Under the pieces are notes generated by a model. It searched no databases and was not told where the DNA came from. It was given only the letters and a program-made list of their open reading frames with translations. A program made the position numbers and the translations under genes. A stretch of DNA of 57,631 nt, from contig DRNP01000043.1 of NCBI GenBank assembly GCA_011322135.1, forward strand, positions 1-57,631, in the 5' to 3' direction. The stretch comes from Candidatus Kaiserbacteria bacterium. GTDB taxonomy: Bacteria; Patescibacteriota; Minisyncoccia; Phycocordibacterales; Phycocordibacteraceae. This document shows, in pieces, positions 1,111 through 57,631 of this stretch; the first letter of the stretch is position 1; the number at the start of each line of letters is the position of its first letter.

Positions 1111-4100
1111 CTAGTAGTTGAACGACGTTGTGTCGGACGTAAAGTCTTTAAGAAGGTAACCGTTTGTCCAGTCAGTTGCTGCAGTACCAAGCGTTGCGTG
1201 ATCAGAAGCTGAACGGTCAGACCACACGACCTTGTTGCCGGAGGTAAGACTTGTAGCTGCTGCATTTGAAGCAAGACTTGTGTCCTGTGCAAGCGAGATG
1301 GAAATCGAAGCACCTGTTGTCCAGTTGGAAAGCGTTGCCGAGCGAAGCTCATACGTCTTCGTCTGGCTTGCACCAACTTGCTGAAGGCTGTCGAAAGGAA
1401 TCTTTACGACACCACTGGCATTTGCTTCTACAGCAGTTGCATTAAGCGCAGTTGCCGTTCCGCCGGTCACATCATAGAGAGTGAATCCTGCAACAGTTGC
1501 TGTCGATGTCGAGACATTGAATGTCAACTGGTCAAGATCCACAGCTCCGGCTGCATCTGCGGATACATTCACGCGGTAGAGGGCTTGTCCTGCTGCCGGT
1601 GTTGTACCCACAGACTGCATTGCGAATGTCGGGAATGACTTACGTACATACATTGTACCGTAACCAGTGCTTGTACCAGAAACATTTGCTGTCCCAACCG
1701 ATGTTGTGGCATTACCTGTCGAATCGATTGCCTGGAAGCCTATGTTGTGGATAAGTGTGGTTGTGATACCTGCACCCGAAGTTGCTCCATTTGCAATTGT
1801 CGGAACACCTACGAACACTTTAACGTCAGCCGAGTCATTCTTCGGAACATAGAACGAGAGACCGCTGAATGTAGAAGTTGCAACACTGGTCGACGAGTTT
1901 GTACTAAGCGCGCTCGTAACTGTCTGTGTTGCCCCACTTGCATTCTTGTACTGAAGTGTGACTCCGGTTGTAGAAGTTGCAACATTGTTCGGAAGAGTAA
2001 TCTCGAGTTTCGTCACAGTGTACGGCGAATTCTGCGCCGAGAATGTGTAATTCGAAACCTCTACTTGACTTGCTCCTGCGATAACATTGGCACTAACAGG
2101 ATTCGATGCGCTACGCGCTATCGAAAGTGTTCCCGTACCAACAGTCATGCTTTGCAATGCTTCAGAACTCGAAAGCGAAGAACTTGTCGAAGTTACAGCA
2201 CCTGTTCCTGTTGTACTTGTGGTGAGTGTCGCTTGGATACTACCGGTAGCAGTAGAGAGCAAGTTGCCGTAAACATCGATAGTCTTCGTACCAGACTCCG
2301 GAATAGTGAAGTTCACCGAGAAGGTGTTCCCCGTTGCCGAAGGCGTTGTGATTGCTGTACCGATTGTTGCTCCTGTTGCGTGATCCTTAAGAGTAAGATT
2401 TGTCACACCGGCATAACCGGAAAGGTCTACCGCAATTGTGTTGACATTAATCCCTTCTGTAGATCCTGCAGAAAGAGTAAACGAACCAAGTCGAGCATTC
2501 TGGGTTCCTGCAATCATTGTCTGATCACCATAACCCGTGAACTTTGATGCCGTAAGTGCAGAACTGGATACAGTTACCGCATTTCCGGAAACATTTGTCG
2601 AAGGAACATTTGTCGAATTAAGAGAGCTCTGGCCCTGACCATTGCTGGTTGCCGCCTTCAAGCTAACTTGAATCGTACCTGTTGAAGGAATATTTACACC
2701 GGCAGATGTCTTTGCGTCAGCATAGATATCTACAGTTGTTACAGTCCCCGCAGGAATTATCAGTGATGAACCGAGCGAGAAATCCATTGCCTGACTTGCT
2801 GCATTTGTTGAGCTACCACCAATTGTCTTAGTAGAGCCAATTTGTACACCATTTACCATAATCTTACCATTGGCAAGGTTATATGATGCATCCGTAGAAC
2901 CATCACTTGTAGTCGAAGCAAAGACATAAAGGTCGTTTATCTTTACAGCCTCACCGGAAGCGAGGAAGTTAAAGGATGCGAGCTTTACACCTGTTGTTCC
3001 AAGGGCAATGTCGTTAATAGGAGAAGCTGCCGCTTTTGTGACAGAAACTCCATTTGCACCAACAGAAGCGATTGTCTGAACACCGGACGATGCTGCAGAG
3101 AAACTTGTTGATGTGTTCGATGTGTTCAAGGTAACCGGCTGATTGAGCTGGTTATCTACAAACATAGCATCCGAGCTACGCTGGAGAGAAAGCTCTAGCG
3201 TACGGCTTGAACCCCCAACAACGTTTGCCATAACTTTGATGATGTGGCTAGACGTCGAGAGAAGTACCGGATTGCTCGAAAGGTCAAACGTGACTGTTCG
3301 GTCAGCGCTCAACTGTGATACAGCTGAACCAACCTGAGTTCCGTCCACATAGAGACGGAGGTTCTGCACATCTGATGCATCAATCGAACCGAGGTTCGTA
3401 AGCTTAATCATCGAGAGGTTTACAGGGTTTGTAGAAACGGAGACCGTATTCTGCCAAACGATGTAATCTGCCGTCGGGCTCAAACTTGTGTTTGTAGACG
3501 GAAGCGTGGTGCTGTCAAAGACAACACTCGCGAGGTCCGCTGCCGAAATAGTTTGCAATCCGCCACTAATCGGGAACGAAACACTTGAGTCAAGTGTTCC
3601 TGTGCTACCGACTGCCGTAAGCGATACGCCTACTTGCTGACCGGAAGTGCTGTCTGCAATGTCAGATCGAACAGCTACCGTGTAGGTACCACCTGCCGGA
3701 ACAGTAAAGAGTCCGGAAGCGTTGCTGAACGAGAATGATGAATTGCTGACACCTGCCGAGTCGGTAATACGGTTTACACCATTATATAGGTACACGTTCG
3801 TAAGAGTCGTGTCATTTGACACTCCTGTGCGATTGAACGTAAGGCTCGTCACATTGATTGAAGCCGACGTTGGGTTGCTGAACGTGAACTCACCGAGGTC
3901 TGCAATACCCTGTTTTTGAACGATAACCGTTCCGGACGGAGACGTAGCGGAAAGGGCGACCTTAAGGCCGTTACCTGTCATTGCTGTAGTCCCGCCTGTA
4001 TTTCCACCAGTGTTCCCACTTGTAGAAGAAGTACTTCCGAGATTCCAATGCGCACGGGAAATCGGACCAAAGTACCCTACTGCCGGAGAAATACTATTTG

Positions 4101-4506
4101 CAGACTGCCATGCAGCTACTGCCGACTGTGTCTGGCTACCGAAGTATCCTGTTGCACCTGCCGGAATTGTATATCCTGCTGCGATAAGAGCGTTTTGAAG
4201 GCACGTTACATCAGCACCTTTTGCACCAATGGTGAGACTTGCTGTGAAATTGCAAGACGATGTTGTTGTGGTTGTGCCGCCTGTCGAGCCGGTGTTTACC
4301 GAAGTACCGGTAAGTGCCGACTGAACGTTTGAGATCGTAGCGCTGTCTGCGCCAAACGAAGAAAGTAGCGAGAGGATGGACTGGACCTGTGCGCTGGTGA
4401 GCGATGCAGCATGTGCCGGAGCAACAACTGCAAATGAAGCTACCATCGCAAGACCTGTCGCAACCGCTGCAATCTTCGCGATCACATTATTGGTTACTGT
4501 AGTCAT
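1111..4506 (-). CDS. Large secreted Ser/Thr/Gly/Ala-rich cell-surface protein with N-terminal peptidoglycan-binding domain (S-layer/adhesin-like)
   Basis: ORF 1111..4539; likely start MTTVTNN at 4506. Signal/anchor IAAVATGLAMVASFAVVAPAHA. PG_binding_1-like segment GADVTCLQNALIAAGYTIPAGATGYFGSQTQSAVAAWQ (about 4045-4242). The remaining ~950 aa are low in charge and look like repetitive beta-sandwich. Confidence 0.7.
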   Translation of the reverse strand: MTTVTNNVIAKIAAVATGLAMVASFAVVAPAHAASLTSAQVQSILSLLSSFGADSATISNVQSALTGTSVNTGSTGGTTTTTSSCNFTASLTIGAKGADVTCLQNALIAAGYTIPAGATGYFGSQTQSAVAAWQSANSISPAVGYFGPISRAHWNLGSTSSTSGNTGGNTGGTTAMTGNGLKVALSATSPSGTVIVQKQGIADLGEFTFSNPTSASINVTSLTFNRTGVSNDTTLTNVYLYNGVNRITDSAGVSNSSFSFSNASGLFTVPAGGTYTVAVRSDIADSTSGQQVGVSLTAVGSTGTLDSSVSFPISGGLQTISAADLASVVFDSTTLPSTNTSLSPTADYIVWQNTVSVSTNPVNLSMIKLTNLGSIDASDVQNLRLYVDGTQVGSAVSQLSADRTVTFDLSSNPVLLSTSSHIIKVMANVVGGSSRTLELSLQRSSDAMFVDNQLNQPVTLNTSNTSTSFSAASSGVQTIASVGANGVSVTKAAASPINDIALGTTGVKLASFNFLASGEAVKINDLYVFASTTSDGSTDASYNLANGKIMVNGVQIGSTKTIGGSSTNAASQAMDFSLGSSLIIPAGTVTTVDIYADAKTSAGVNIPSTGTIQVSLKAATSNGQGQSSLNSTNVPSTNVSGNAVTVSSSALTASKFTGYGDQTMIAGTQNARLGSFTLSAGSTEGINVNTIAVDLSGYAGVTNLTLKDHATGATIGTAITTPSATGNTFSVNFTIPESGTKTIDVYGNLLSTATGSIQATLTTSTTGTGAVTSTSSSLSSSEALQSMTVGTGTLSIARSASNPVSANVIAGASQVEVSNYTFSAQNSPYTVTKLEITLPNNVATSTTGVTLQYKNASGATQTVTSALSTNSSTSVATSTFSGLSFYVPKNDSADVKVFVGVPTIANGATSGAGITTTLIHNIGFQAIDSTGNATTSVGTANVSGTSTGYGTMYVRKSFPTFAMQSVGTTPAAGQALYRVNVSADAAGAVDLDQLTFNVSTSTATVAGFTLYDVTGGTATALNATAVEANASGVVKIPFDSLQQVGASQTKTYELRSATLSNWTTGASISISLAQDTSLASNAAATSLTSGNKVVWSDRSASDHATLGTAATDWTNGYLLKDFTSDTTSFNY

Positions 4507-4587
4507 AACTATATTTTTCTGAATTCCTAGTCTGCACATTCGCCGACATACTTAAAAATAATAAAGTGCCGGTGAGTGTACAGGGTT

Positions 4588-40684: not shown

Positions 40685-40783
40685 TGAAAATTGAAAAAAT
40701 TAAAGATACGCCAATATGTTTATAAAGTATAGCAAACAAAAAACGTGGCGAGCCGACGGCTCGCCACGTTTTTTGTTTTTTTG

Positions 40784-40865
40784 TGCCCAGGAGAGGACTC
40801 GAACCTCCAAGCCTTGCGGCATATGCACCTCAAGCATACGCGTATACCAATTCCGCCACCTGGGC
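40784..40865 (-). tRNA. tRNA-Leu (GAG), type II long variable arm
   Basis: Reverse complement: gcccagg...tatgc-ttGAGgt-gcata-tgccgcaaggct-tggaggttcgagtcctct-cctgggc-a. Confidence 0.9.
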
Positions 40866-42399: not shown

Positions 42400-42456
42400 T
42401 TCTTCAATATTTAGGCAATGGTCGCAAACTACTTTGCGCTTCCTGCATTGCCTTTG

Positions 42457-42538
42457 TGGGCATGAGAGGACTCGAACCTCCAAGCCTTGCGGCATACGCA
42501 CCTGAAGCGTACGTGTATACCAATTCCACCACATGCCC
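42457..42538 (-). tRNA. tRNA-Leu (CAG), type II
   Basis: Reverse complement: gggcatg...tacgc-ttCAGgt-gcgta-tgccgcaaggct-tggaggttcgagtcctct-catgccc-a. Close paralog of the Leu-GAG gene. Confidence 0.9.
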
Positions 42539-43201: not shown

Positions 43202-43236
43202 AATGCTCCGCATTGTGCTCGTTATTTTTGGTGCCC
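43202..43236. repeat. 35-nt direct repeat copy A (tRNA-Arg 3' end plus its downstream flank)
   Basis: aatgctccgcattgtgctcgttatttttggtgccc, identical to 43403-43437. The period is 201 bp. Confidence 0.85.
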
Positions 43237-43402
43237 GCATTATTTAGGAATCGGTCACTCTCGCGGGTTTTTCTTTCACGCTTTGCGCTCATAAAAACCT
43301 CGCTCCCTCGACCCCCACTCGTCGTCACTTGTTCGCTTCGCTCACAAGGCTTCGCGACGACTCGGTTCGATTCCTACCGGTGCCACAAAAATATACTCAC
43401 CC

Positions 43403-43437
43403 AATGCTCCGCATTGTGCTCGTTATTTTTGGTGCCC
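43403..43437. repeat. 35-nt direct repeat copy B (overlaps the true tRNA-Arg 3' end)
   Basis: Identical to 43202-43236. Confidence 0.85.
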
Positions 43438-43504
43438 CCAGTAGGAATCGAACCCACATCAAGAGCTTAGAAGTCTCCTGTTCTATCCATTGAACTATGG
43501 GGGC
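43430..43504 (-). tRNA. tRNA-Arg (TCT), CCA encoded
   Basis: Reverse complement: gccccca-ta-gttcaatggatagaac-a-ggaga-ctTCTaa-gctct-tgatg-tgggttcgattcctac-tgggggc-acca. One A.G mismatch closes the anticodon stem. Confidence 0.85.
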
Positions 43505-46100: not shown

Positions 46101-46427
46101 TTAGTGTGCACCTGTTCCGGGTGGTACCGGACGACTTGGTGTCAAAAAAGCAAACGTGTCGTTTTTTCCAACAGCAAAAAGCATGCCGTTTGATTCGACT
46201 CCGCAAATTGTGCGTGGTTCGAGATTTGTAACAAATGCGAGTTGTTTCCCCACAAGCTCATCCGGTGACTCCACGTATTCCACAACACCGGACACAATTT
46301 GACGCGGTTCTTCCTCGCCAAAATCGACCATCAACCGAATAAGTTTATCTGTATTCTCTACTCGTTCCGCGCTCTGTACAGAACCGATACGCACTTCTAT
46401 TTTTTCTAAATCGTCAATTGTTGCCAT
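46101..46427 (-). CDS. Stand-alone tRNA-binding domain protein (Trbp111/CsaA-like)
   Basis: IEVRIGSVQSAERVENTDKLIRLMVDFGEE-PRQIVSGV...LAFVTNLEPRTICGVESNGML. Confidence 0.8.
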   Translation of the reverse strand: MATIDDLEKIEVRIGSVQSAERVENTDKLIRLMVDFGEEEPRQIVSGVVEYVESPDELVGKQLAFVTNLEPRTICGVESNGMLFAVGKNDTFAFLTPSRPVPPGTGAH

Positions 46428-46812
46428 TTTTTGAAAGATAACTTGTAAGTATTAAAGCGGCGGCGGCGGCGTCTACGACGCCGCCGGACACACGCTCACC
46501 CGTTGGTAAACGTCTGGCTTCTTGGGTTGTAAATATTTCCGTCTCGAAAAAAATCGGGACATTCGCGCGCGAGCGAAGCTCGCGCGCGAATGTTCGAGCT
46601 TCCGTGGCTATCGGATTATCGGTTCCATCAAAATTTTTAGACTCTCCGATGACAACCGCTCCGACTTTTTCTTCACCAATAAGTTTCGACAATCTCTCTG
46701 CGAGATTCTTGTCTGTAAAAATAACACCTCTCGGGAAACCCATTGTGCCGGCATCGTCTGAAAAAGCGATACCTGTTTTTTTGCTTCCATAATCTATACC
46801 AAGATAACGCAT
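46414..46812 (-). CDS. ruvX: Holliday junction resolvase-like RuvX/YqgF
   Basis: MRYLGIDYGSKKTGIAFSD, VVIGESKNFDGT, DAAAAALIL. Confidence 0.85.
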   Translation of the reverse strand: MRYLGIDYGSKKTGIAFSDDAGTMGFPRGVIFTDKNLAERLSKLIGEEKVGAVVIGESKNFDGTDNPIATEARTFARELRSRANVPIFFETEIFTTQEARRLPTGERVSGGVVDAAAAALILTSYLSKNGNN

Positions 46813-47220: not shown

Positions 47221-47307
47221 GGAGGGATGGCAGAGAGGTCGAATGCGCCGGTCTTGAAAACCGGAGTCTCAAAAGGACCGTGGGTTCGAATCCCACTCCC
47301 TCCGCCA
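47221..47307 (+). tRNA. tRNA-Ser (TGA), CCA encoded
   Basis: ggaggga-tg-gcagagaggtcgaatgc-g-ccggt-ctTGAaa-accgg-agtctcaaaaggacc-gtgggttcgaatcccac-tccctcc-gcca. Confidence 0.9.
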
Positions 47308-47434: not shown

Positions 47435-48253
47435 TTATATCCCATAAAATCTACGACTCCACAGCTTCCCTATCCACGTGCGTTTAATTGAAAAAGCGAG
47501 TCCTTCTGTTCCCAAATCGTGCGCAATTACTTCAGAAAGCGACCGCATGTACGTTCCTGATGAGCACAAAACGCTCACGCGAACAATCACATATTTTTCT
47601 TTTTTATTATTCGCTAACACACGCATCCATGAATCAATAACATCTTTTCTGCGAAAATCTCGTCCGAGAGCTTTTGACTTTTCCGTTACTCTCGGCAACA
47701 TCGATATCTGTTTCAGTGCGCTTTGCACAATATCGCCGGTAGACATTGTACGTACAGAAATGAGCTTCGCACGATATATACGAGAATGCTGTAACGGTAT
47801 TTTTATTTCGTTTAATCTGCCTTCAAGCGCCCACTGAAAAAGATGCTTCCCATCGAAAGTTTTTGATGAATATGCAGGATACGGGAAATTGAATTCTCCG
47901 ACGCGCGCGCGAAGCGCGCGATTCACTTTTTCCGGAGTTATTTTCGGTGGTGGAAAAGAACTCACAATCCCCAAAATATCCCCCGTATCACTTGCCATGC
48001 CAAAAAGTATTTCTACTTCGTATTTTTTATCAAGACCTAAATACCGCTTCATTCTACGACACTCTTTTCCAACAACAACGAGCATTTTTCCACTTGCCAT
48101 CGGGTCAAGTCTTCCTGCATACGCAAGTTTTTTGTTGCGTAGCCACGGATACCTGTCTCGAAGTTTATTTAGTGCGATGAGTGGCGTCTCACCTGTAAGT
48201 TTCCATACGGTAAGTGTTTTTGGTTTTAATAACCACATTACAGCAGTATACAT
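47435..48253 (-). CDS. truB: tRNA pseudouridine(55) synthase TruB
   Basis: LAYAGRLDPMASGKMLVVVG catalytic Asp motif; SSGTYMRSL. Confidence 0.85.
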   Translation of the reverse strand: MYTAVMWLLKPKTLTVWKLTGETPLIALNKLRDRYPWLRNKKLAYAGRLDPMASGKMLVVVGKECRRMKRYLGLDKKYEVEILFGMASDTGDILGIVSSFPPPKITPEKVNRALRARVGEFNFPYPAYSSKTFDGKHLFQWALEGRLNEIKIPLQHSRIYRAKLISVRTMSTGDIVQSALKQISMLPRVTEKSKALGRDFRRKDVIDSWMRVLANNKKEKYVIVRVSVLCSSGTYMRSLSEVIAHDLGTEGLAFSIKRTWIGKLWSRRFYGI

Positions 48254-48257
48254 AAAC

Positions 48258-48298
48258 TACGATGTAATATCTTTCACACATTACTGCAAAAATAAAGC
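48258..48298. repeat. Island direct repeat, left copy
   Basis: See 57231-57273. One substitution plus a 2-nt indel between the copies. It starts 5 nt upstream of the truB start codon. Confidence 0.85.
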
Positions 48299-48300
48299 TC

Positions 48301-48323
48301 GGAAATCGTGACTGTCCCTATTT
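48301..48323 (+). repeat. 23-nt inverted repeat, left arm (contains the TCGTGACTGTCCC core)
   Basis: ggaaatcgtgactgtccctattt, a perfect reverse complement of 48988-49010. Confidence 0.9.
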
Positions 48324-48345
48324 ATTCAATATTCTTAGTTTTAAG

Positions 48346-48588
48346 TTATAGGTTTTTATATGTTTTTTCGTTGCGCAAACGTATTGAATCTATAATGAGT
48401 ACTTTCCCTTTTTCATAATGAAAAATAATTCTGAAATTTCCTTTTCTGAGTTTAAAGAAATCTGTATCTTTTACTTTCGTAATATTTAAACCTATTTTGT
48501 GTCCGTTTGTAAGCTGACTAATTATTTTAGATAAAAATAAACGGTCTTTAGCCGATATTTTTCTAAATAATTTCTCTTTTTTATCCAT
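48346..48588 (-). CDS. Type II toxin, RelE/ParE family
   Basis: 80 aa. FFKLRKGNFRIIFHYEKGKVLIIDSIRLRNEKTY pattern. Confidence 0.7.
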   Translation of the reverse strand: MDKKEKLFRKISAKDRLFLSKIISQLTNGHKIGLNITKVKDTDFFKLRKGNFRIIFHYEKGKVLIIDSIRLRNEKTYKNL

Positions 48589-48599
48589 ATACTATTTCT

Positions 48600-48851
48600 C
48601 TATCCGTCTATTTTCTTAAGAATTTTTTGTAGTTCGCTAGCCCTTAATCCTTTTCTACTGTTATCACGAATAGCGTCAAATACCGTATATTCATCTATAT
48701 CTTTTTTTGTATAAGAAACAGGGTTAATGATAATAGAATCACCTTTTGAATCAATGGAAATGTATTTAGTTTTCATCGCTCTACGCCACTCTATTGGAAG
48801 TGTTATTTGCCCTCTCTCTGTGACTTTTTGTATTTTTTGTATTGATTTCAT
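48600..48851 (-). CDS. AbrB/MazE/SpoVT-type antitoxin
   Basis: VTERGQITLPIEWRRAMKTKYISIDSKGDSIIINP swapped-hairpin motif. Upstream of the toxin. Confidence 0.7.
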   Translation of the reverse strand: MKSIQKIQKVTERGQITLPIEWRRAMKTKYISIDSKGDSIIINPVSYTKKDIDEYTVFDAIRDNSRKGLRASELQKILKKIDG

Positions 48852-48987
48852 CGTATTCTTATTATAAGAATTTCATATTTTCTGTCAACAAGTGTATTTA
48901 ATCACCTCGGGGTCGAATGAGATCAACGCCTGTTTATTACAGAAATTATCTTTTAAACTTCGCTGACTAAAGTGTCTACTTTTTGGA

Positions 48988-49010
48988 AAATAGGGACAGT
49001 CACGATTTCC
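48988..49010 (-). repeat. 23-nt inverted repeat, right arm
   Basis: aaatagggacagtcacgatttcc. Confidence 0.9.
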
Positions 49011-49092
49011 GTGGTCTGCCAACTCCCCGACGAGTAGTCTCGAACCCGTGACGATCGACCATTATGTCCACCTGGCGCGCTCTCCCATATAT

Positions 49093-49116
49093 AAAATCGT
49101 GACTTCCCACCATTTA
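49093..49116 (+). repeat. Degenerate copy of the motif plus island right-junction sequence
   Basis: aaaatcgtgacttcccaccattta resembles 57202-57233 (aaaatcgtagctgtcccacccttaccattta). Confidence 0.5.
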
Positions 49117-49136
49117 CTCGAATGCTTGGCGCACCT

Positions 49137-49583
49137 CTAAGCCGTATTCTTGGATGCCCGTGTGTTCGCACGATGCGCTTTGAAATATTTCCAAGCGATG
49201 AGTAGAAATGAGATGACGGTGACAATCTCAGCCATCTGGCGTGCGGCATCGTCACGGGTGTAGGGAAAGAGATCCATACCAAGCCCCTGAGATGAAGTGG
49301 TATTTGTCAGAGCAACAGAGATGAAGGCGAGCGGGAGTAGCCACACCGCGAGCTTGAGCCAGGATTTGAAGACTGCGCGCGAGACGAAGATAAGGACAAT
49401 GGCAAGCGGGAGGGAGTAGAGGGCGAAGAAGTATGAGGGTTGAGTGAAGTAGAAGTATATATGATCCATCCAGGAGCCATAGCAAGACGAGATTGTTTCT
49501 GTACACCAACGACTGAAGTAAAGAAATCCTATAGCTAATAGCGTGCCCAGCACTGGTATAAATTGGACGATTTTTGTTTTCAT
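49137..49583 (-). CDS. Four-TM membrane protein (hypothetical)
   Basis: CYGSW...FKSWLKLAVWLLPLAFISVALT. Distant paralog of 49669..50088. Confidence 0.55.
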   Translation of the reverse strand: MKTKIVQFIPVLGTLLAIGFLYFSRWCTETISSCYGSWMDHIYFYFTQPSYFFALYSLPLAIVLIFVSRAVFKSWLKLAVWLLPLAFISVALTNTTSSQGLGMDLFPYTRDDAARQMAEIVTVISFLLIAWKYFKAHRANTRASKNTA

Positions 49584-49668
49584 ATCAATCTGAATAATTA
49601 ATAATTAAATTCCCCTTCTTTGTTTTTATATATGGTATCACCAAACCAGGGAGTATTTGTCGTTTGCG

Positions 49669-50088
49669 CTATTTCTTCAACCAGTAAATGCGAATTGACT
49701 GGATTAGAATAATGAAAAAAGATATGAGGATGTAGAGTGCGTACAATCCAAGTATCACATAAAATTTGATCGGGGTGGAAATGAAACCCGCACCGGCGTC
49801 TGGAGTCAAAACCGAAATAATCAAAGAGACAGTTACCCAAGGAACAGAGACACGAATCCAACTTGAAAAAATCCTATTATCAAGAAACCAGACAATTCCT
49901 AAGAATACTAAAATTATCGGTGCCCAAAAAAAGTCCATTTCGAGATAAAATAATAAGCCGTAATATGGGTAACACCACTTTGACGCATAACAGACATTAT
50001 CGTATCCAAGTGTGAGGAACGCTACTAACAGTAATGTAAACACCGCACTCCATATCAGTACATTTTTTTTAGAGATGATACGATACAT
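49669..50088 (-). CDS. Four-TM membrane protein (hypothetical), paralog of 49137..49583
   Basis: CYASKW...FSSWIRVSVPWVTVSLIISVLT. Starts 8 nt after the orphan fragment stop. Confidence 0.55.
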   Translation of the reverse strand: MYRIISKKNVLIWSAVFTLLLVAFLTLGYDNVCYASKWCYPYYGLLFYLEMDFFWAPIILVFLGIVWFLDNRIFSSWIRVSVPWVTVSLIISVLTPDAGAGFISTPIKFYVILGLYALYILISFFIILIQSIRIYWLKK

Positions 50089-50096
50089 AGCTTTTA

Positions 50097-50405
50097 TATT
50101 TTAATTACTAATATTCCTTCCAATGTTTTCACACTCGGCACATACAAACCATTATACGTCTTTAAGTGCTCGCGATGGAAGCGTGGTTTTGTGAACAAGT
50201 TTATTCTGTGTTTGTATGCAGATGAAACGACATACGTTTTATTGAGGCGTGGAAAATATGTAGCGATAATATTGTTGGTCGGCGTTTTGATATCCGAGAC
50301 AAGGGTTGTGTAGTTGCCTTGTCTATTTGTATTCCAAAAGTAATGGAGCGTAGCGGTGGCGTTTGTTGTAGTGCCATTTGAATAACTGAGAGAACGTATT
50401 ATATT
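50097..50405 (-). pseudogene. Orphan 3'-terminal fragment of the giant lipase-like gene
   Basis: 50125-50396 aligns ungapped with 51135-51406 (offset 1010; about 14 mismatches in 272 nt by eye). The frame stays open (IRSLSYSNGTTTNATATLHYFWNT...VKTLEGILVIKI*) but there is no start codon. Confidence 0.65.
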
Positions 50406-50487
50406 TTGATTTAGATAAAATCAATAGAATCACATATTACTTAGCCAGCAACACTCTGTTATAAGCACATCCAAGAACTTGACTTAA

Positions 50488-51081
50488 TTAAAGCAGTCCA
50501 AAACTTGGTATAGTAACAAAGAAAATTGGCAAAAGTATTATCCCTGCACTACTTATCGCAAGAACAAGCATGGTAAATACAGTAGCCCAGCTCATTGAAT
50601 GTGCATATCGTATTTTTTTATAAGTTGCCACTACGAATTCAACAAGAAAGAAAAGGGACTGAGTAATCGCGAGAATTAAAAATGCAATAAGAATCCAGAG
50701 AAACGCTGCGCTCGATACAACATACAAAAACCCTTGCGGTATGATTTCGGGTGACATACCCCATAGAACGAACAGAGCTATAAATATTGCAAGAAAAACA
50801 CTAACAACAGCGCCTGCACGCGAGAAAACTTTGGAACCAAGTTTTGATGGCAATATAAAGTGTCGATAGAGCATCAATACAACATATCCGTTAACTAGAT
50901 AGGTCACCACAGCAAGAAAGGCGCTCCATACCAAAGATCCCCCTTCAGCCTGCGCTTGCGACTGCACATATTGATTAAAACTTAAAACAAAAATTGTCAG
51001 CAATATGCCACCAATAATTGATAGTAAAAGCAGTAGTCGTGAAAACTTCGTTGGTTTTTTGATTAAGTAAGAGACTGACAT
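50488..51081 (-). CDS. Multipass membrane protein (hypothetical)
   Basis: About 6 TM segments. Starts 22 nt after the giant gene stop. Confidence 0.6.
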   Translation of the reverse strand: MSVSYLIKKPTKFSRLLLLLSIIGGILLTIFVLSFNQYVQSQAQAEGGSLVWSAFLAVVTYLVNGYVVLMLYRHFILPSKLGSKVFSRAGAVVSVFLAIFIALFVLWGMSPEIIPQGFLYVVSSAAFLWILIAFLILAITQSLFFLVEFVVATYKKIRYAHSMSWATVFTMLVLAISSAGIILLPIFFVTIPSFGLL

Positions 51082-51103
51082 AATATGAGTTTAATTACTT
51101 GAA

Positions 51104-54100
51104 CTAATAATCTATCTGCACAAATCCCTTCTCCGTTTTCACACTCGGAACATACAATCCATTATACGTCTTTAAGTGCTCGCGACGGAAGTGTGGTTTT
51201 GTGAACAAGTTTATTCTGTGTTTGTGTGCAGATGAGATAACATACGTTTTATTAAGGCGTGGAAAATATGTAGCGACAATGTTTTTGGTCGGCGTTTTGA
51301 TATCCGAGACAAGGGTTGTGTAGTTACCTTGTCTGTTTGTATTCCAAAAGTAATGGAGCGTAGCGGTGGCGTTTGTTGTAGTGCCATTTGAATAACTGAG
51401 AGAACGCATTGTAAGTATTGCGAAACCCGGACCAAATGAATGGCGAACAAGTTTGCTGTGGTAATTTCTGTGATGACGTTTGCGGTCACGTCTATAATCG
51501 CGATCATGATTATTATCGTGGGGTATCTTTTTCGCGAATAAATTTGGAATATGTAAGTTGTTGAAACTCCTCTCTATAGATCGTCCGTCCTTATGCCACG
51601 AGTCATCTAATTTTAAAAATGGAAATATTTTATGATATTTGTGATGGCGACTAAAACTTGGATATTTAGCTGTGGCAATAGTGAGCCAATTGCCAGCCTG
51701 GTCGGTAATCGTGGTGGAGGTTGCGGTAGAAGTGACTGTTGTTGATGATGTCTCATCTATGCCTGTAATTTGTATGCTTTTGGTAGAAGTACTGAAACCA
51801 ATTATAGCTTCTGGCGGAATGATGTCAGGAATTACAATACTTCCCTGCTTTGCATTATATTGAGTGTACGTTACACCGTCGCCACTGTAATTAACTTTTA
51901 GAGTACTACTTGCGGTCGGGTCGGTCGCCGGGTTGATTGCCAGCGTAGCAATAGTTGATGTCGCTGAAGGAATAGCGGCGAAAGTGGTAGACGCAACGAC
52001 AGTGTTTCCATTTTGTTCTTTAATATCTAGTGCAAAGGAACCGCTACCGATACCACGCATCACCACCTTTCCTGTCATACTTTGAGGCACCGAGAGCCAT
52101 TGCACTTCACCGAAACGACGATAATCAACTCCTGGAATATTGAACTCTGTTGATGTTGCGGTAGCACCGGTATAATTACCGGAAGTATTTATGAAACCGA
52201 GTGTGAGTGGAGAATGAAGAATAAAATGAAGCCGTGCCATGTTACCTGTGTAAGCGGGAGTTGAAGTACTAATGTATTTTGGAAGTGATGCAGTGGTTGA
52301 TGCTGTGATAATGGATGATAGAAGTGTACGAAGTTCAGAGACGTTAAATATATTGTCATGATGAGTACCAAAAAGTGCATCTGCTTTTTTCGAGTATCTA
52401 AGCCACCCATTGTATTTATTTAGATTCACCCAATACCTAGTATCCTTTCCACCATCAGCCCATAGTGCGCTTGGTGTTACAACTGTTCCATCTCCATCCA
52501 TGACCATCCTTGGTATGTATGATATGTGCGTTGATAAATTACAGCCATTGGATAACCATACTTTTGACTCTTCTGCGAAAGCCAGACATTTAAAAAATGG
52601 CAACTTCTCGTAATGAATCCCAGCTACAGTCTCATTTCCCCATCCAGCTATCGTGTAAAGATGTACACTGGTGGGTGGCGTCCATTTATCCAATGAAGCA
52701 TGGGTTGCTTTTGCGGCATGTAGAAGATTTACATTTGCTATCTGTGGATCAATTAGATCGTCATATGCGGGCACGTTACGCGTGCCTGCAGAATCGGTCA
52801 TAAAATTATACAAACCCTGAGCCCAGTTGATATTGCTTCCATAAGCATTGCTCCATGTTGGCAAAGTTGATGAAGAAATTGTAACGACAGGAGTAGAAAC
52901 GAGTTGGTTGTCGCTGTTTTTGAAATTATCAGCGTAAGAAAAATATGATTGCGATGGTAGAAGGTCATAAGTCATCGGCATGTTTTGTGCCAAGTCACGA
53001 GCTTTCTTGTTAGAAAGAAGAGTCGGTATACCAGCACCATATCCGTTAAGAAGAACCCCTATTGCGTCTGGTGTTCCGAGTTGTGGCGTGGCAATGAGTA
53101 TGACGTTATCAATGAGCCGTGCCGTGGTTGTCGCTCCAAGTTTTTGCATAAGTGCTTTGGCAAGTAATCCTCCGTTGCTGTGAGCAATGATTGTAACTTT
53201 TCCGGTTGGTGAAGTTGAGGCGAGATGTTTTAAGGTCTCAATAATGTATGGGTCATGCCCGGGCTTTGGTGCCTCAATATAACTAATGTGCCCATCTGCG
53301 AGTTTCCTTCCCTTGGTAATAAGGGTGTTGTATCCAAGTCGCCAGTCATAGGGAGTTGACGTCGCAATAATGTGGTACTTGGACTGCCAGTTTTTCATTT
53401 CTTGCAATAAATCTTTGTATACCGTATGATGAATCGCTTTATACACCATATGTACAGTCACTTGGGAAATAACTTTTGAAACTGCAATATTCTGGTCAAT
53501 GCTCGTTCCATCTGAGTTTAGTTTTAGTGAATTAGCTACAGTATCACTTGCAGGAGTCCACACTTTTTGATGAATCGCTTCGTCGTATAATGTGCTTCCC
53601 TCAATGCCGGGGAGGAAGAGGACGTTGGAGACTTTGGGGACTTTTGGCAAGCTCGTATCTTTGACGACAATAGTTCCTGCAGTGCTACAGTAATAATCAC
53701 CAACCCACGTATTGCAATAACCATTTGCAACTATGGTGCCTGTAAATGTAGAAGTCGCACCTTCTGCGTATAGCGCGATGCGACCGCCACCGCCAGCTCC
53801 AGAGACAATAGCACTACCTCCCCCGCCACCGTTTGCGTTAAACACGCCATTTCCAACGAGTGTCTTGGTGTGCACGAGTATGCTTCCACCGCTCCCGGAG
53901 GTATCGCCTTCGACGGAAATCGTACCGTTGTTAGTGAGCGTATCTGCGATATTGAGTGCGATTGCGCCACCACCGGCTCTGTAGCCACCGCTCCCAAAGT
54001 CGGTCGGGTTGTCAGCACTGCCATACGTCGAGGTTGCGCTGTTTCTGTACCCGATGCCACCATAGCTTGCTCCTGCGTATTGGTCACCATGTGCTGTGCC

Positions 54101-55231
54101 AGGTCCTTCTCTCGCCGGATAGCCCTTTCCCGAGAGGTCGATTGTTGAGCCGTTTGAAACGGTGAGGTCGGTGAGCGAGAGATCAAGCCGATGCTCCGGA
54201 GCTGTAGTGAGTTTCGAGGATCCTGAGATGTCGAGATTGCGTATAGTCGTGTCGGTTGCGTCCGCAATGCTAAGTGTCGACTTGCCACCCAGCGTCACGT
54301 TGGTTGCATTGAGGTGAACGCTATCGCCCAGAGTCACGTTCGACGCATTTGATAACGTGAAATTGGTTGCGGAAATGGTTGCTCCCGGTTCACTCGTTAT
54401 CTGTTTGCCCGACAAAAGGATGTTTGTAAATGTCGTGGTTTTGTTTGATTGGAACTGCCATGCTTTCGGGAGCATGAGTGTGTTTCCGGAGGTGTTTATC
54501 ATTCCCACCGTTCCGTCTCCACCGCATATTTTTGACCCGGATGGAGTTGCGCATTGCCCGGCGGCAGTCACTGTTCCGGAAAAACTAGATGTGGCATACC
54601 GGAGAAGGATGCGACCGCCACCGCCCGGGAAGTGGTATGAGCCATCATCGAAAAGTGCTCCACCCATTGCGGAAAATACTCCGGTGCCTGTGAGCGTATG
54701 AGTAGTGACATAAATACTGCCACCGCTAGACGCTGAGTACCCATCGGCAGATATACGTCCGTCGTTTTGAATCATGCCTGCCACTATGAGTTGCATCGCA
54801 CCGCCACCGGAACCGTATCCACCACTCCCAAGGTCGATTGGATGTAGTGCTGAACCGTATGTTGAAGTGGCGGTATTACCGATACCCACGCCACCATAGC
54901 TTGCACCGCTTCTGTAGTTTGTTGGCGACGGAGCTCCGGGACCTTCTCCAGCCGGGTATCCTTGAGCGTCTGCAGAAATAGACGACCCTTTGTCGACCAC
55001 TATATTATTTGCATGAATGATGACTCCTTTAAATCCCTTGCGACTTGGATCGCCTTGGAGTGTGAGTGTAGAACTACTGGCAACCCTGAGTGTGTCAAAA
55101 AAATACTCGCCCGGAGCAAGTGTTGTGTTGTTTGTGATGACGGTACTTGTGGCGGCGGCGTGTGTTGCTGTGGGGAATGTAACGAAAACGCAGAGCGTTA
55201 GTAACGTGAGGATATATATGCGAGCGCGCAT
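51104..55231 (-). CDS. 1375-aa secreted protein: duplicated Gly-rich beta-helix module + LCAT-like alpha/beta-hydrolase (lipase/acyltransferase) + beta-sandwich region + His/Arg-rich C-terminus
   Basis: Signal peptide LTLLTLCVFVTFPTATHA. Two ~125-aa repeats (GYPAGEGPG..ASYGGVG..GSGGY..GGG..; res ~85-210 and ~366-490). VLFLPGIEGSTL, PYDWR, IIAHSNGG (Ser685 codon at 53177-53179), MDGDGTV, THHDNIF. Confidence 0.8.
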   Translation of the reverse strand: MRARIYILTLLTLCVFVTFPTATHAAATSTVITNNTTLAPGEYFFDTLRVASSSTLTLQGDPSRKGFKGVIIHANNIVVDKGSSISADAQGYPAGEGPGAPSPTNYRSGASYGGVGIGNTATSTYGSALHPIDLGSGGYGSGGGAMQLIVAGMIQNDGRISADGYSASSGGSIYVTTHTLTGTGVFSAMGGALFDDGSYHFPGGGGRILLRYATSSFSGTVTAAGQCATPSGSKICGGDGTVGMINTSGNTLMLPKAWQFQSNKTTTFTNILLSGKQITSEPGATISATNFTLSNASNVTLGDSVHLNATNVTLGGKSTLSIADATDTTIRNLDISGSSKLTTAPEHRLDLSLTDLTVSNGSTIDLSGKGYPAREGPGTAHGDQYAGASYGGIGYRNSATSTYGSADNPTDFGSGGYRAGGGAIALNIADTLTNNGTISVEGDTSGSGGSILVHTKTLVGNGVFNANGGGGGSAIVSGAGGGGRIALYAEGATSTFTGTIVANGYCNTWVGDYYCSTAGTIVVKDTSLPKVPKVSNVLFLPGIEGSTLYDEAIHQKVWTPASDTVANSLKLNSDGTSIDQNIAVSKVISQVTVHMVYKAIHHTVYKDLLQEMKNWQSKYHIIATSTPYDWRLGYNTLITKGRKLADGHISYIEAPKPGHDPYIIETLKHLASTSPTGKVTIIAHSNGGLLAKALMQKLGATTTARLIDNVILIATPQLGTPDAIGVLLNGYGAGIPTLLSNKKARDLAQNMPMTYDLLPSQSYFSYADNFKNSDNQLVSTPVVTISSSTLPTWSNAYGSNINWAQGLYNFMTDSAGTRNVPAYDDLIDPQIANVNLLHAAKATHASLDKWTPPTSVHLYTIAGWGNETVAGIHYEKLPFFKCLAFAEESKVWLSNGCNLSTHISYIPRMVMDGDGTVVTPSALWADGGKDTRYWVNLNKYNGWLRYSKKADALFGTHHDNIFNVSELRTLLSSIITASTTASLPKYISTSTPAYTGNMARLHFILHSPLTLGFINTSGNYTGATATSTEFNIPGVDYRRFGEVQWLSVPQSMTGKVVMRGIGSGSFALDIKEQNGNTVVASTTFAAIPSATSTIATLAINPATDPTASSTLKVNYSGDGVTYTQYNAKQGSIVIPDIIPPEAIIGFSTSTKSIQITGIDETSSTTVTSTATSTTITDQAGNWLTIATAKYPSFSRHHKYHKIFPFLKLDDSWHKDGRSIERSFNNLHIPNLFAKKIPHDNNHDRDYRRDRKRHHRNYHSKLVRHSFGPGFAILTMRSLSYSNGTTTNATATLHYFWNTNRQGNYTTLVSDIKTPTKNIVATYFPRLNKTYVISSAHKHRINLFTKPHFRREHLKTYNGLYVPSVKTEKGFVQIDY

Positions 55232-55318
55232 TGCTTTTACCCTACTCGGTATTGCGTGCGGGTGCGAATGATTGTGTGTGGATAACTGTTAGTTGCAAGC
55301 TGGCGAGAAAGAGTTCGT

Positions 55319-55339
55319 TGCGTCGACTTCGTCGACGCA
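55319..55339. repeat. Hairpin tgcgtcgac-ttc-gtcgacgca (short version of 57115-57157)
   Basis: Same gtcgac-ttc-gtcgac core as the 20-bp stem upstream of the 254-aa paralog. Confidence 0.7.
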
Positions 55340-55356
55340 CGTGTTTAGACTAAGAT

Positions 55357-55399
55357 ACCTCCTTCATCTTTTTCGCCACCTGCAAGATATTAAAATCGT
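55357..55399. repeat. 43-nt block identical to 57167-57209 (shared 5' region of the giant gene and of the paralog pair)
   Basis: acctccttcatctttttcgccacctgcaagatattaaaatcgt. Confidence 0.9.
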
Positions 55400-55434
55400 G
55401 ACTGTCCCCATTTCTTCGTGACTGTCCCCATTTC
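55393..55434 (+). repeat. Two tandem 21-nt units carrying the CGTGACTGTCCCCATTT core
   Basis: aaatcgtgactgtccccattt + cttcgtgactgtccccatttc. Confidence 0.85.
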
Positions 55435-55499
55435 TTTGAGGTATTCCTTACCTTTTTGTTCTTTAGCTCTTTTGAACCCTGCATTGCGCGGGGTTCTTT

Positions 55500-56225
55500 T
55501 TATTCAATAACAAATGTCTTTTCTCCCACTTTTTTGTTGTAAGGGTTTCCGTAAGGCCCTGTATAAGTAACACTGCTATCGAAAACAGATAATTTTATGG
55601 TGTTATCTGTCATGAACGTGGCTTCTATCTCGTCTAGTAATCCATAGGACTTTGCATATGTCTGACTACCAACAAGCCGCGAACCCGGCACGTCTTGTAA
55701 TGCATTCATTCCGGGCTTGTAGTATGTAAGTTTTTTATCTGAAACAAAGACTATCGTAGTGCTACTTTGCAACACATTGTTTGCAAGTGTACTAGAACCT
55801 ACGTACGCTTCTTGCGACAAACTATACACTTGGTAGTACGATCCCTTTGCGTTGAACGATGCAACCAGAGCGAACCCATTATATAGGGCAATCAAAGAGC
55901 TGTTCGCTAGACCTTCTTCTTCGCTAAGACAATATGCTTCGCTCGGATTCGCACACCGCGCGGGCATAAATATTTGCCTCAAGAATGTTTCCCCGACCTC
56001 AGGTAAATTCGCATACTTCCCCTCTTTCTTAGTATAGAGCCGATCTTTCTCAAGAGAAGAGAGGTCAATACCAGCAAGCGGATTGGTCGAGGTTGCGACG
56101 GATGCTTCAGACGTTGAAGTTGCAATCTGGTCTTGAGTGGCTGGCACATGAGGACGCGAGAGTGCATACCAACTGGTACCGATGATTGCTAGCACAATCA
56201 TTCCGAGGGCAATCTTCATTTTCAT
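55500..56225 (-). CDS. Secreted/membrane-anchored hypothetical protein (paralog A)
   Basis: N-terminal TM, then ATSTNPLAGIDLSSLEKDRLYTKKEGKYANLP, shared with paralog B. Confidence 0.6.
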   Translation of the reverse strand: MKMKIALGMIVLAIIGTSWYALSRPHVPATQDQIATSTSEASVATSTNPLAGIDLSSLEKDRLYTKKEGKYANLPEVGETFLRQIFMPARCANPSEAYCLSEEEGLANSSLIALYNGFALVASFNAKGSYYQVYSLSQEAYVGSSTLANNVLQSSTTIVFVSDKKLTYYKPGMNALQDVPGSRLVGSQTYAKSYGLLDEIEATFMTDNTIKLSVFDSSVTYTGPYGNPYNKKVGEKTFVIE

Positions 56226-56346
56226 GTTGTCATAGTATCACAGACAACGTCTGCCTCTGGGAGACGTGCCAGCTCCTCAATTGAGGTATTCCTTACTTTT
56301 TTGTTCTTTAGTTCTTTTGAACCTCGCGCAATGCGGGGTTCTTTTA

Positions 56347-57090
56347 TTACAGCAATCCTAAATCGAACGACACGGTTCGATTTGTTTTTGGGGCAAGCAT
56401 TTCGGAAGATCCTCTGCTATCAAAAAGGCTGATGCTCAACAAGTTTCCATTGAACGAGAATTGCGAGATCTGCATGCCCATGCCAGCGTAGTACCAATAC
56501 GATTCTGATGCAGATAAAGACGACCTTGGGACGAGGGCAAAAGCGGTCATACCCGGACGATAGTAGAGAAGCTCCTCTCTCTGTCCTGGTAGATTGTTTA
56601 TGTATACGACAAACGTCTTGTTCTCTATCTGCGAGCCAAAATACATCAAAGATTGCCCGAGCTTCTCATGGAGCGCGTTATAGGTGACATAATAGGAACT
56701 TCCTTTTCCTGTAGGAACACTAAATAGGAAAATGTTATTTTTAGCAGCAATGATCCTGCTCTCAGGAATGATCTCTTGCCACACATTACAATAGTTACCG
56801 CTAAGATTTTCTACACATTCAGGCGCGAGCGCCTCCCATAATAATTCTTGTCCTGCTTTGGGAAGATTAGAGTATTTCCCTTCTTCTTCGGTATAAAGCG
56901 TATTCTTCTCAAGAGAAGAGAGGTCAATACCAGCAAGCGGATTGGTCGAGGTTGCAACAGGTGCTTCTGGCGTTGAAGTCGCGTTCATGTTTGACGCAAC
57001 CGGTGTGTGTGGATGCAAGAACGCGAACCATGCACCGAAGCCAACAAGAATAATGGCAGCGGTGGTGGCAATGATTGCCTTTCTGTTCAT
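56347..57090 (-). CDS. Secreted/membrane-anchored hypothetical protein (paralog B)
   Basis: ORF 56347..57111; likely start MNRKAII at 57090. ATSTNPLAGIDLSSLEKNTLYTEEEGKYSNLP. Confidence 0.6.
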   Translation of the reverse strand: MNRKAIIATTAAIILVGFGAWFAFLHPHTPVASNMNATSTPEAPVATSTNPLAGIDLSSLEKNTLYTEEEGKYSNLPKAGQELLWEALAPECVENLSGNYCNVWQEIIPESRIIAAKNNIFLFSVPTGKGSSYYVTYNALHEKLGQSLMYFGSQIENKTFVVYINNLPGQREELLYYRPGMTAFALVPRSSLSASESYWYYAGMGMQISQFSFNGNLLSISLFDSRGSSEMLAPKTNRTVSFDLGLL

Positions 57091-57114
57091 GAGCGAATGG
57101 TACCATAGCAATTA

Positions 57115-57157
57115 TGGAGAACGCGCGCGTCGACTTCGTCGACGCGCGCGTTCTCCA
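57115..57157. repeat. Perfect 20-bp GC-rich stem with 3-nt loop
   Basis: tggagaacgcgcgcgtcgac-ttc-gtcgacgcgcgcgttctcca, 25 nt upstream of the paralog B start. Confidence 0.8.
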
Positions 57158-57202
57158 GGCTGATACACCTCCTTCATCTTTTTCGCCACCTGCAAGATAT
57201 TA

Positions 57203-57219
57203 AAATCGTAGCTGTCCCA
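57203..57219 (+). repeat. Degenerate motif copy at the island right end
   Basis: aaatcgtagctgtccca. Confidence 0.5.
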
Positions 57220-57230
57220 CCCTTACCATT

Positions 57231-57273
57231 TACGCGATGTAATATTTTTCACACATTACTGCAAAAATAAAGC
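57231..57273. repeat. Island direct repeat, right copy
   Basis: tacgcgatgtaatatttttcacacattactgcaaaaataaagc. Confidence 0.85.
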
Positions 57274-57313
57274 AAAAAGTTTGCGCACGAGTGTTATAGT
57301 TATATTTACAGTT

Positions 57314-57631
57314 ATGCAACACACACCGCGATTTGTATGGGACGCACAAGAATACGAATTCGACGATAAGCCTGCCGAATGGTATTGGGGTTTGGGTGTT
57401 ATCGCAACGGCTAGTATTATTGCCAGTGTTCTTTTCGGAAATTATCTCCTTGCAATTGTTTTTTTAACAGCAACATTTGCTATCGGACTACAAGCCACGA
57501 AAAAACCTAATACTCATCACATTGTTCTCTCCGAACAAGGACTGGCAATCGAACACCGTTTATACCCTTTTGATATAATGCACTCCTTCAGCATGTTCGA
57601 GCACATTGATAAATCAAAACCTCCCATATTA
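57314..57631 (+). CDS. Hypothetical two-TM protein (3'-partial, runs off the window)
   Basis: Not in the supplied track (no stop in the window). ATG at 57314; hand translation MQHTPRFVWDAQEYEFDDKPAEWYWGLGVIATASIIASVLFGNYLLAIVFLTATFAIGLQ... is open to the end. Confidence 0.5.
   Translation, partial: MQHTPRFVWDAQEYEFDDKPAEWYWGLGVIATASIIASVLFGNYLLAIVFLTATFAIGLQATKKPNTHHIVLSEQGLAIEHRLYPFDIMHSFSMFEHIDKSKPPIL

Follow-up and report, generated by a model that had tools for sequence, protein, structure and literature searches.

A repeat-framed mosaic of accessory genes between truB and a divergent membrane-protein gene in a Candidatus Kaiserbacteria bacterium

How does a block of secreted- and membrane-protein genes come to lie between two core genes, framed by a short direct repeat, with no integrase or transposase gene in it? 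This question is raised by a 57,631-nt stretch of DNA from a Candidatus Kaiserbacteria bacterium (GenBank assembly GCA_011322135.1, contig DRNP01000043.1, positions 1 to 57,631), called the window below. About 8.9 kb, here called the island, separate truB from a divergent gene starting at 57314, whose 157-aa product we call p157, and a 41-bp direct repeat (R41) stands at each end. An earlier note, made by a model from the letters alone, had described this repeat at 48258–48298 and 57231–57273 and had listed between its copies, all on one strand, a toxin–antitoxin (TA) cassette, three membrane proteins, a gene fragment, a giant enzyme and two paralogs, with no integrase or transposase. It took the truB/57314 spacer for the target of one insertion, duplicated on arrival. 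The repeat, the gene inventory, the lack of mobility genes and the accessory nature of the block were all borne out; the single insertion was not. The island is a nested mosaic of three direct-repeat-framed inserts, not one mobile unit. The likeliest origin, to which we give an even chance, is homology-anchored or host recombination, not self-mobilisation, at a hypervariable locus between tRNA-Ser and p157; the block would then be a flexible island specific to its lineage.

On the reverse strand, the window corresponds to positions 41501–99131 of a hydrothermal-vent metagenome contig of 152.6 kb (ENA ERZ940665, k127_763805), which could be read through fetched loci over record positions 32907–102948, about 70 kb. 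NCBI assigns the proteins of this contig to Candidatus Kaiserbacteria. This part is ordinary core chromosome, with genes for aminoacyl-tRNA synthetases, ribosomal proteins, RecA, FtsK, PolA, RuvA and pili. Pfam tables list no integrase or transposase among its called genes, and a Pfam scan of the island proteins found no tyrosine or serine recombinase and no transposase. Among 5.8 billion proteins compared, the next-best TruB after the window's own is only 60% identical, so that close relatives are scarce.

The two copies of R41 share the core CGATGTAATAT(C/T)TTTCACACATTACTGCAAAAATAAAGC at 48260–48298 and 57235–57273, with 38 of 39 positions identical. At the 5' edge TA precedes the left core and TACG the right core, which is a 2-nt CG indel. 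With up to three mismatches allowed, the window holds exactly two matches, compared with none in 100 dinucleotide shuffles, and a 23-nt part of the core occurs only twice in the 70 kb. The core has no copy in the GTDB representative genomes (a collection to which the source metagenome-assembled genome (MAG) apparently does not belong) and R41 has no match in viral contigs. Metagenome contigs gave one match, the orthologous copy in a sister strain (L016, UOEV01000057.1). By these counts R41 is not a common intergenic element, a doubt that had been raised about it, nor, over the 70 kb read, a genome-wide one. The repeat does not extend past 41–43 bp; the 80 nt on each side align no better than shuffled sequence, and its edges are therefore sharp. 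From the left copy it is 4 nt to the initial ATG in the truB open reading frame (ORF), at 48253, and 19 nt to a likelier start at 48238; the right copy ends 40 nt ahead of the p157 ATG. Neither overlaps a tRNA or tmRNA gene by Rfam and ARAGORN; the nearest, tRNA-Ser, lies about 950 bp from the left copy. The left junction recurs with 100% identity in L002, a Logan contig assembled independently from a different run, and the right junction in the separate assembly of L016, which makes an assembly artefact unlikely.

The closest relative found without the island, L004 (JGI SWIR1_1000508), has its p157 ortholog (74% aa identity, E=2e-91) directly divergent from truB. The gene order on the truB side, with tRNA-Ser, DUF5652, RuvX, a tRNA-binding protein and PilM, is the same as in the window. 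The start codons of truB and p157 are 106 nt apart in L004 and would be about 101 nt apart in the window rebuilt with one R41, both counted from a conserved in-frame upstream truB ATG (48238 in the window). The interval between tRNA-Ser(tga) and p157 varies in content across five p157-bearing GTDB genomes, L004 and the window (Table 1). The tRNA-Ser also precedes it in L004, L010, L011, L013 and L015, and p157 is conserved at 93% in L016 and 65–72% in L010–L012. The locus shows differing content between the same core genes, an empty or minimal state in relatives and a distinct interior, as flexible islands do. It is largely supported that the 8.9-kb block is accessory DNA set in a formerly compact (~100-nt) divergent promoter spacer of truB and p157.

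L016 was found by scanning metagenome contigs with the 23-nt core of R41. Its core genes are 94.8% identical to those of the window contig at the nucleotide level over 6.5 kb. The same site in L016 holds, in this order, the giant gene's 5' end (86.5% nucleotide and 88.7% aa identity), a single diverged leader module, one R41 and p157; the two secreted paralogs, sec241 and sec254, are missing. On the island side the identity between the two strains is 60% over 57115–57230 and 72% in the island's final 32 nt, compared with 93% in R41, 97.5% in the region upstream of p157 and 94% in the p157 coding sequence. The drop falls exactly at the inner edge of R41. This step is a true evolutionary breakpoint, and R41 sides with the conserved core. 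Since both strains carry the island, it is older than their split, and its content is still changing.

Two further repeat pairs lie inside the island. The first is a 279-nt direct repeat at 51135–51413 and 50125–50403 with 94–95% identity. One copy is the 3' end of the present giant gene, followed by the membrane-protein gene mem197; the other is a relic of a giant-gene 3' end, which stops 5 nt from the start of mem139. In two other contigs, L028 and L029, a giant-gene homolog is directly followed by homologs of mem139 and mem148, and no mem197 homolog stands beside the giant gene of either. This order identifies the relic as the ancestral junction, and a newer giant-gene allele with mem197 appears to have been joined upstream of it. 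The second pair is a module of about 90 nt at 55320–55408 and 57127–57218, which frames the sec254–sec241 block that is absent from L016. The two modules share 96% identity over their best 52 nt; with the single copy in L016 either shares only about 60%. The three insert pairs are unrelated in sequence and measure 41–43, about 90 and 279 nt, so that neither one att core nor a fixed short duplication fits them all.

The leader modules also contain hairpins. In the sec254 leader, 57115–57157 forms a perfect 20-bp GC-rich hairpin, TGGAGAACGCGCGCGTCGAC ttc GTCGACGCGCGCGTTCTCCA, which is not kept in L016 and has no T-run after it on the coding strand. The giant-gene leader has a shorter 8-bp version at 55320–55338.

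The cargo is lineage-typical rather than exotic. In the giant protein a signal-like N-terminus and two N-terminal repeats rich in glycine are combined with an LCAT-type alpha/beta-hydrolase domain and a long C-terminal region. The protein has 361 homologs at E<1e-20, mostly of 1200–1300 aa, from Paceibacteria and Patescibacteria. The giant hydrolase with its small membrane proteins is a lineage-typical cluster that is widespread in Paceibacteria and found at unrelated loci. The three membrane proteins have 3–6 hydrophobic segments each. The tandem genes sec241 and sec254 encode paralogs that share 40% identity and have a single hydrophobic segment each, at the N-terminus; sec254 is called as 247 aa in the public record. 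Pfam and NCBIfam assign no curated family to the secreted paralogs, the toxin or the three membrane proteins, Rfam at E<=1 gave only chance-level matches in the island, and mem148, looked up in other assemblies for alternative arrangements, was found in the source contig only.

In the TA cassette the antitoxin gene comes first and the toxin gene follows 12 nt later. The antitoxin scores 28.7 bits against PF04014 (MazE_antitoxin; cut-off 24.7), and its 80-aa partner scores 16.3 bits against ParE_toxin (E=0.015; cut-off 23), with no NCBIfam match. The GC content of the cassette is 32%, compared with about 42% for the genome, and no target duplication flanks it. The Logan contig L002, from the same strain, stops 11 nt past the second inverted-repeat arm of the cassette, which hints at a polymorphism or a branch in the assembly graph.

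Table 1. Features of the island and its flanks (positions in the window) and content of the tRNA-Ser–p157 interval in relatives
Feature	Positions	Strand	Remarks
R41-L, left copy of the direct repeat	48258–48298	+	40/40 identical to the L016 copy
R41-R, right copy of the direct repeat	57231–57273	+	2 nt longer than the left copy; L016 ortholog at 820–859
Giant gene, 1375-aa secreted or surface protein	51104–55231	-	Pfam LCAT E=3.7e-16
mem197, 197-aa membrane protein	50488–51081	-	inside the segment framed by the 279-nt direct repeat
Giant-gene 3'-end relic, direct repeat copy 2	50125–50403	-	intact frame; own C-terminus ...VKTLEGILVIKI and stop
mem139, 139-aa membrane protein	49669–50088	-	4 hydrophobic segments; homologs directly after giant-gene homologs in L028, L029
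mem148, 148-aa membrane protein	49137–49583	-	3 hydrophobic segments; L029 homolog 48% identical, after giant-gene homolog
sec241, 241-aa secreted or anchored protein	55500–56225	-	one N-terminal hydrophobic segment
sec254, 247-aa secreted or anchored paralog	56347–57090	-	ORF to TTG 57111; likely start ATG 57090
Leader/promoter-like module ahead of giant gene	55320–55428	-	short hairpin, 62-nt repeat, two 16-nt motifs
Second leader/promoter-like module	57115–57218	-	20-bp hairpin 57115–57157, 62-nt repeat, one 16-nt motif 57203–57218
Inverted-repeat arm, perfect 24 nt (24/24 complementary)	48300–48323	+	contains the 16-nt motif AAATCGTGACTGTCCC
Second 24-nt inverted-repeat arm	48988–49011	-	brackets the TA cassette
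Putative 80-aa toxin	48346–48588	-	weak RelE/ParE resemblance
AbrB/MazE (SpoVT-AbrB) antitoxin, 83 aa	48600–48851	-	NCBIfam AbrB domain E=1.4e-5
TA sigma-70-type promoter, TTGACA/16-nt spacer/TATAAT	48861–48888	-	12/12 consensus; pattern match only
Degenerate third 16-nt motif and promoter-like module	49094–49109	+	3 mismatches; upstream (minus sense) of the TA cassette
tRNA-Ser(tga)	47221–47307	+	ARAGORN and Rfam; conserved left landmark of the hypervariable interval
truB, tRNA pseudouridine-55 synthase family	47435–48253	-	Pfam TruB_N E=3.5e-25
p157 extended -10 TGTTATAGT (putative)	57292–57300	+	outside R41; 13 nt ahead of p157 start
p157, two-pass membrane protein gene, 5' part in window	57314–57631	+	full gene in L003; conserved right landmark
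tRNA-Ser–p157 interval, L011			174 bp
tRNA-Ser–p157 interval, L013			one 118-aa ORF
tRNA-Ser–p157 interval, L010			helix-turn-helix/SocA-Panacea antitoxin gene, 128-aa partner and one further ORF
tRNA-Ser–p157 interval, L004			truB
tRNA-Ser–p157 interval, window			truB and 8.9 kb

An origin by recombination would account for these features as follows. R41 would be core-side sequence, the upstream promoter region that serves both neighbours, and the joining of foreign or relocated DNA would have duplicated it. The interior would have been built stepwise, from the conserved cluster of giant LCAT-like hydrolase and small membrane proteins of Paceibacteria, the mem197 insert framed by the 279-nt repeat, the block of two secreted paralogs framed by the ~90-nt repeat and the TA cassette between its 24-nt inverted repeats. 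The inserts framed by direct repeats might have been joined by one of two routes. In the first, DNA taken up from related strains would recombine by a homologous crossover at one end and be joined illegitimately at the other; in the second, a circular fragment would enter by a Campbell-type single crossover. In the case of R41, a chromosome with p157, R41 and the island would have recombined with one carrying p157, R41 and truB, the truB–p157 state being that of L004. It is equally possible that truB with one R41 was the incoming piece instead of the island. By both routes the repeat would run from the join to the end of the homology between donor and recipient, so that its length would be arbitrary. 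We infer this mechanism, and the promoter role of R41, from the arrangement of the scars, and likeness to transformable bacteria suggests that such events may follow DNA uptake.

The motif GTGTTATAGTA is kept 12–16 nt upstream of the p157 start codon in the window, L004, L010 and L012, and TGTTATAGT would act as a promoter element of p157. On the truB side, TATACT at 48249–48244 (minus strand) lies 5 nt ahead of the likely truB start, and the corresponding box in L004 is TATAAT. The true start of truB is probably the ATG at 48238, the ORF call being five codons too long. Read directly from the sequences, the N-terminus MWLLKPKT...GETPL lines up with the in-frame upstream ATG in L004, and TATACT overlaps codons 2–3 of the longer ORF. 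With this start the leaders of truB and p157 would be very short or absent. R41 sits upstream of both -10-like boxes. Each gene would thus have been left, after insertion, with 41 nt or more of the sequence originally upstream of it, and this may explain why the outcome was tolerated.

Base composition at four-fold sites sets part of the island apart. Minus-strand flank genes are G-rich (G:C = 1059:655, skew +0.236, with 24 of 25 genes at or above zero) and plus-strand genes are C-rich (skew -0.179, 7/7 negative). The skew tracks gene strand, which indicates that the minus strand is the leading strand over at least ~70 kb. Although every island gene is on the minus strand, their pooled skew is -0.122. 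In the giant gene G:C is 119:181 (skew -0.207 ± 0.056; p=1.7e-12 by Fisher's test against the flanks) and in mem148 the skew is -0.35; mem197 (+0.25) and sec241 (+0.24) look native by this measure, on small counts. The reversed skew of the giant–mem block means that it is not equilibrated to its present strand, which points to a relatively recent arrival or an inversion. A large secreted protein encoded at 1111–4539 on the same strand is flank-like (+0.17), so the skew of the giant gene is not simply a trait of secreted proteins. An artefact of amino-acid composition was rejected as the cause on the basis of that value and of the restriction of the counts to four-fold sites. The skew minimum near 48.7 kb was also rejected as a replication origin or terminus, because the flank sign resumes past the island and the gene-wise rule is equal on both sides.

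The strand rule itself is almost without exception across the window and L003 beyond it; beyond the island it holds in aggregate, and small genes deviate. RuvX (46414–46812, skew -0.29) is the sole core-gene outlier.

Several points weigh against the recombination proposal. R41 is not recognisable in the L004 spacer, and its status as a pre-existing target would follow from position and spacer length. A MAFFT alignment with that spacer looked suggestive, but the score of a local alignment, 13, is below the shuffle mean of 15.4 and the homology was dropped. L004 and L011, the relatives with an empty or minimal state, stand no closer than genus or family level. An empty site at strain level was not found, the sole close strain, L016, being occupied, so that the insertion is old; the L016 contig starts inside the giant gene and thus covers the right junction only. 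In tetranucleotide usage and GC content the island is near its flanks (distance 0.0165 compared with 0.012 ± 0.003, with 3 of 40 flank windows more extreme), a mild contrast. In L028 and L029, from genomes without the strand pattern, the skew of the giant-gene homologs is likewise zero to negative, and the skew anomaly could come from codon bias intrinsic to the giant-protein family. Competence and illegitimate recombination would have to be supposed in this organism by analogy. Finally, a sharp and nearly perfect direct repeat of about 41 bp also resembles the attL and attR of an integrase-borne element.

Three suggestions of the earlier note stood in part. Duplication of the target on insertion is plausible, given the empty spacer of L004 and the match in length, and undemonstrated, R41 being unlike that spacer. 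An empty site exists as adjacent truB and p157 genes in L004, with no recognisable copy of R41 and at no closer relationship. The expected difference in composition appeared in the four-fold skew (p ~1e-12), and was mild in tetranucleotides and GC.

The most serious alternative, possible but doubtful in our view, is a decayed integrative element. Its attP would have recombined with a 41-bp attB in the truB/p157 spacer to leave identical attL and attR cores, its integrase would have been lost later or have acted in trans, and the internal rearrangements would have come afterwards. The form of the repeat and the island-free site in L004 agree with this, a TA cassette is typical island cargo, and the hotspot lies beside tRNA-Ser. 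The same genome contains what may be a comparable scar. A 41-nt direct repeat (95%) at 43202–43242 and 43403–43443 consists of the 3' end of tRNA-Arg(tct) (gene 43430–43504, minus strand) and 27 nt of downstream flank. The degenerate copy lies 201 nt away, and a tRNA 3'-end-like fragment in opposite orientation lies between the copies at 43364–43390. This looks like the att scar of a mostly deleted tRNA-targeting element and suggests that integrative elements visited this genome. However, no integrase is encoded within ~70 kb, R41 overlaps no tRNA or tmRNA gene, and the ~90- and 279-nt pairs are beyond the reach of one integrase. The cargo is a lineage-typical cluster, and viral or plasmid-like genes were not found. 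Island proteins and R41 were unmatched in viral contigs, and IMG/VR holds no relatives of sec241 or the toxin, which leaves a viral origin unsupported.

It is unlikely that R41 is instead a functional cis-element, such as an upstream promoter, an UP element or an operator, with one copy for truB and one for p157 and the first island operon, kept identical by selection or gene conversion. The duplication would then say little about the arrival of the island. Each copy does stand directly upstream of a -10-like box, R41-R ending 18 nt before TGTTATAGT and R41-L 8 nt before TATACT. No non-coding stretch is better conserved between the strains than R41-R with the p157 upstream region (93–97.5%), and further promoter-like modules are duplicated inside the island. 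On the other hand, the copies are direct whereas the outside genes are divergent, and the sequence is not kept upstream of p157 or truB in L004 or L010–L013. One substitution and one indel are about the neutral divergence expected since the strain split, with no special constraint visible. Such a role would also be compatible with duplication at insertion, and is then no true alternative to it.

The 16-nt motif AAATCGTGACTGTCCC gives rise to a different and rather improbable idea. It occurs at 48303, 48993 (minus strand), 49094, 55393, 55413 and 57203. These are 5–6 occurrences, all in the island, compared with 0.55 expected by chance. The motif holds the 7-bp palindrome GACAGTC, precedes each unit in the sense of transcription, truB included, and is often followed by TAATAT or TATATAT. 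The degenerate module at 49094 shows, by eye, the extended similarity GTAAATGGT...GGGA.AG..ACGATTTTA.ATAT...CAGGTGG. The island could accordingly be pictured as an array of promoter-tagged cassettes (sec254–sec241, giant–mem, TA and truB), each after the motif GGGACAGTCACGATTT, which would be the recombination site of an undescribed shuffling system acting in trans in the Candidate Phyla Radiation (CPR), with R41 as the attachment site of the array. This would be analogous to the attC sites of integrons or the pdif modules of Acinetobacter, and the TA unit is bracketed by a perfect inverted pair of the motif. Neither an IntI nor a Xer gene is present in the 70 kb, no attC-like or 11-6-11 dif-like architecture was recognised, the motif is absent from all fetched relatives, and ten single matches in viral contigs are at chance level.

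A non-autonomous transposon, with R41 as the target-site duplication left by staggered cuts of a transposase, is very improbable. Direct repeats do flank the insert, and in L028, a contig of another Paceibacteria genome, the giant protein's closest full-length homolog has an IS200-like Y1 transposase gene (537–1247) directly upstream. But the known target duplications made by transposases measure about 2–15 bp, far below 41–43 bp, and elements of the IS200/IS605 type produce, to our knowledge, none. The island has no transposase, its ends are not inverted repeats, and the 16-nt motifs at its two ends are in direct orientation. It is hardly credible that the structure is an artefact of metagenome assembly, with two pieces joined into a chimera at a short repeat, because the contig name (k127) implies a final k-mer longer than the repeat and each junction recurs in another assembly.

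Other repeats and indels were noted near tRNA genes. An 83-nt repeat with 89% identity at 40780–40862 and 42453–42535 consists of two tRNA-Leu genes (anticodons gag and cag) and is no mobile-element repeat. L016 has at 1497–2234, between tRNA-Arg(gcg) and rpsT, an extra gene for a 219-aa multipass membrane protein. At the matching place in the window contig (L003, 8145–8316) there are only about 170 nt, which is another strain-level indel beside a tRNA; no flanking repeats were found around this gene.

The locus is a base-resolved case of a streamlined CPR genome that gains and reshuffles surface-protein genes without a mobility gene of its own. Its scars, direct repeats of 41, ~90 and 279 nt and the remnant of a gene end, point to recombination by the host with DNA of related strains as the driver. 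The giant LCAT-type lipase- or acyltransferase-like cargo is plausibly relevant to a host-dependent lifestyle, although this is speculation. Genomic islands and hypervariable loci have already been reported in Patescibacteria, the islands in MAGs (PMC12455944), and for specialists our finding is confirmatory and unsurprising.

The TA cassette resembles type II systems with an AbrB/MazE-fold antitoxin in its gene pair 12 nt apart, its own consensus promoter, its low GC content and its place in a variable region. It is unlike a plain chromosomal TA locus in that perfect 24-nt inverted repeats bracket it, which is unusual, and its toxin is below the thresholds of curated families. Integrase-borne islands have sharp end repeats of tens of bp, an empty site in relatives, TA cargo and atypical composition at neutral sites, and the island shares all of these. 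Their att core commonly, although not universally, overlaps the 3' end of a tRNA or tmRNA gene; here the repeat is no such 3' end and there is no integrase.

Flexible genomic islands, additive or of the replacement type, are known at fixed loci in marine and other bacteria. The island is like them in its fixed locus between core genes by a tRNA gene, its content that differs even between ~94%-identical strains, its surface or secreted, membrane and TA cargo and its faster-diverging interior. It differs from them in having no integrase and no tRNA-derived att repeat, in a boundary repeat that is promoter-spacer sequence, and in three nested inserts with direct repeats of differing length. Homology-facilitated illegitimate recombination and Campbell-type insertion during transformation are known from Acinetobacter, Streptococcus pneumoniae and Pseudomonas stutzeri. 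Partial duplications generated by transformation have also been described (PMC3784515). Unlike in those systems, the mechanism here is read from scars only. Insertion by a homologous anchor with duplications of arbitrary length is common to both, and would match the 41-, 90- and 279-nt pairs and the relic gene end.

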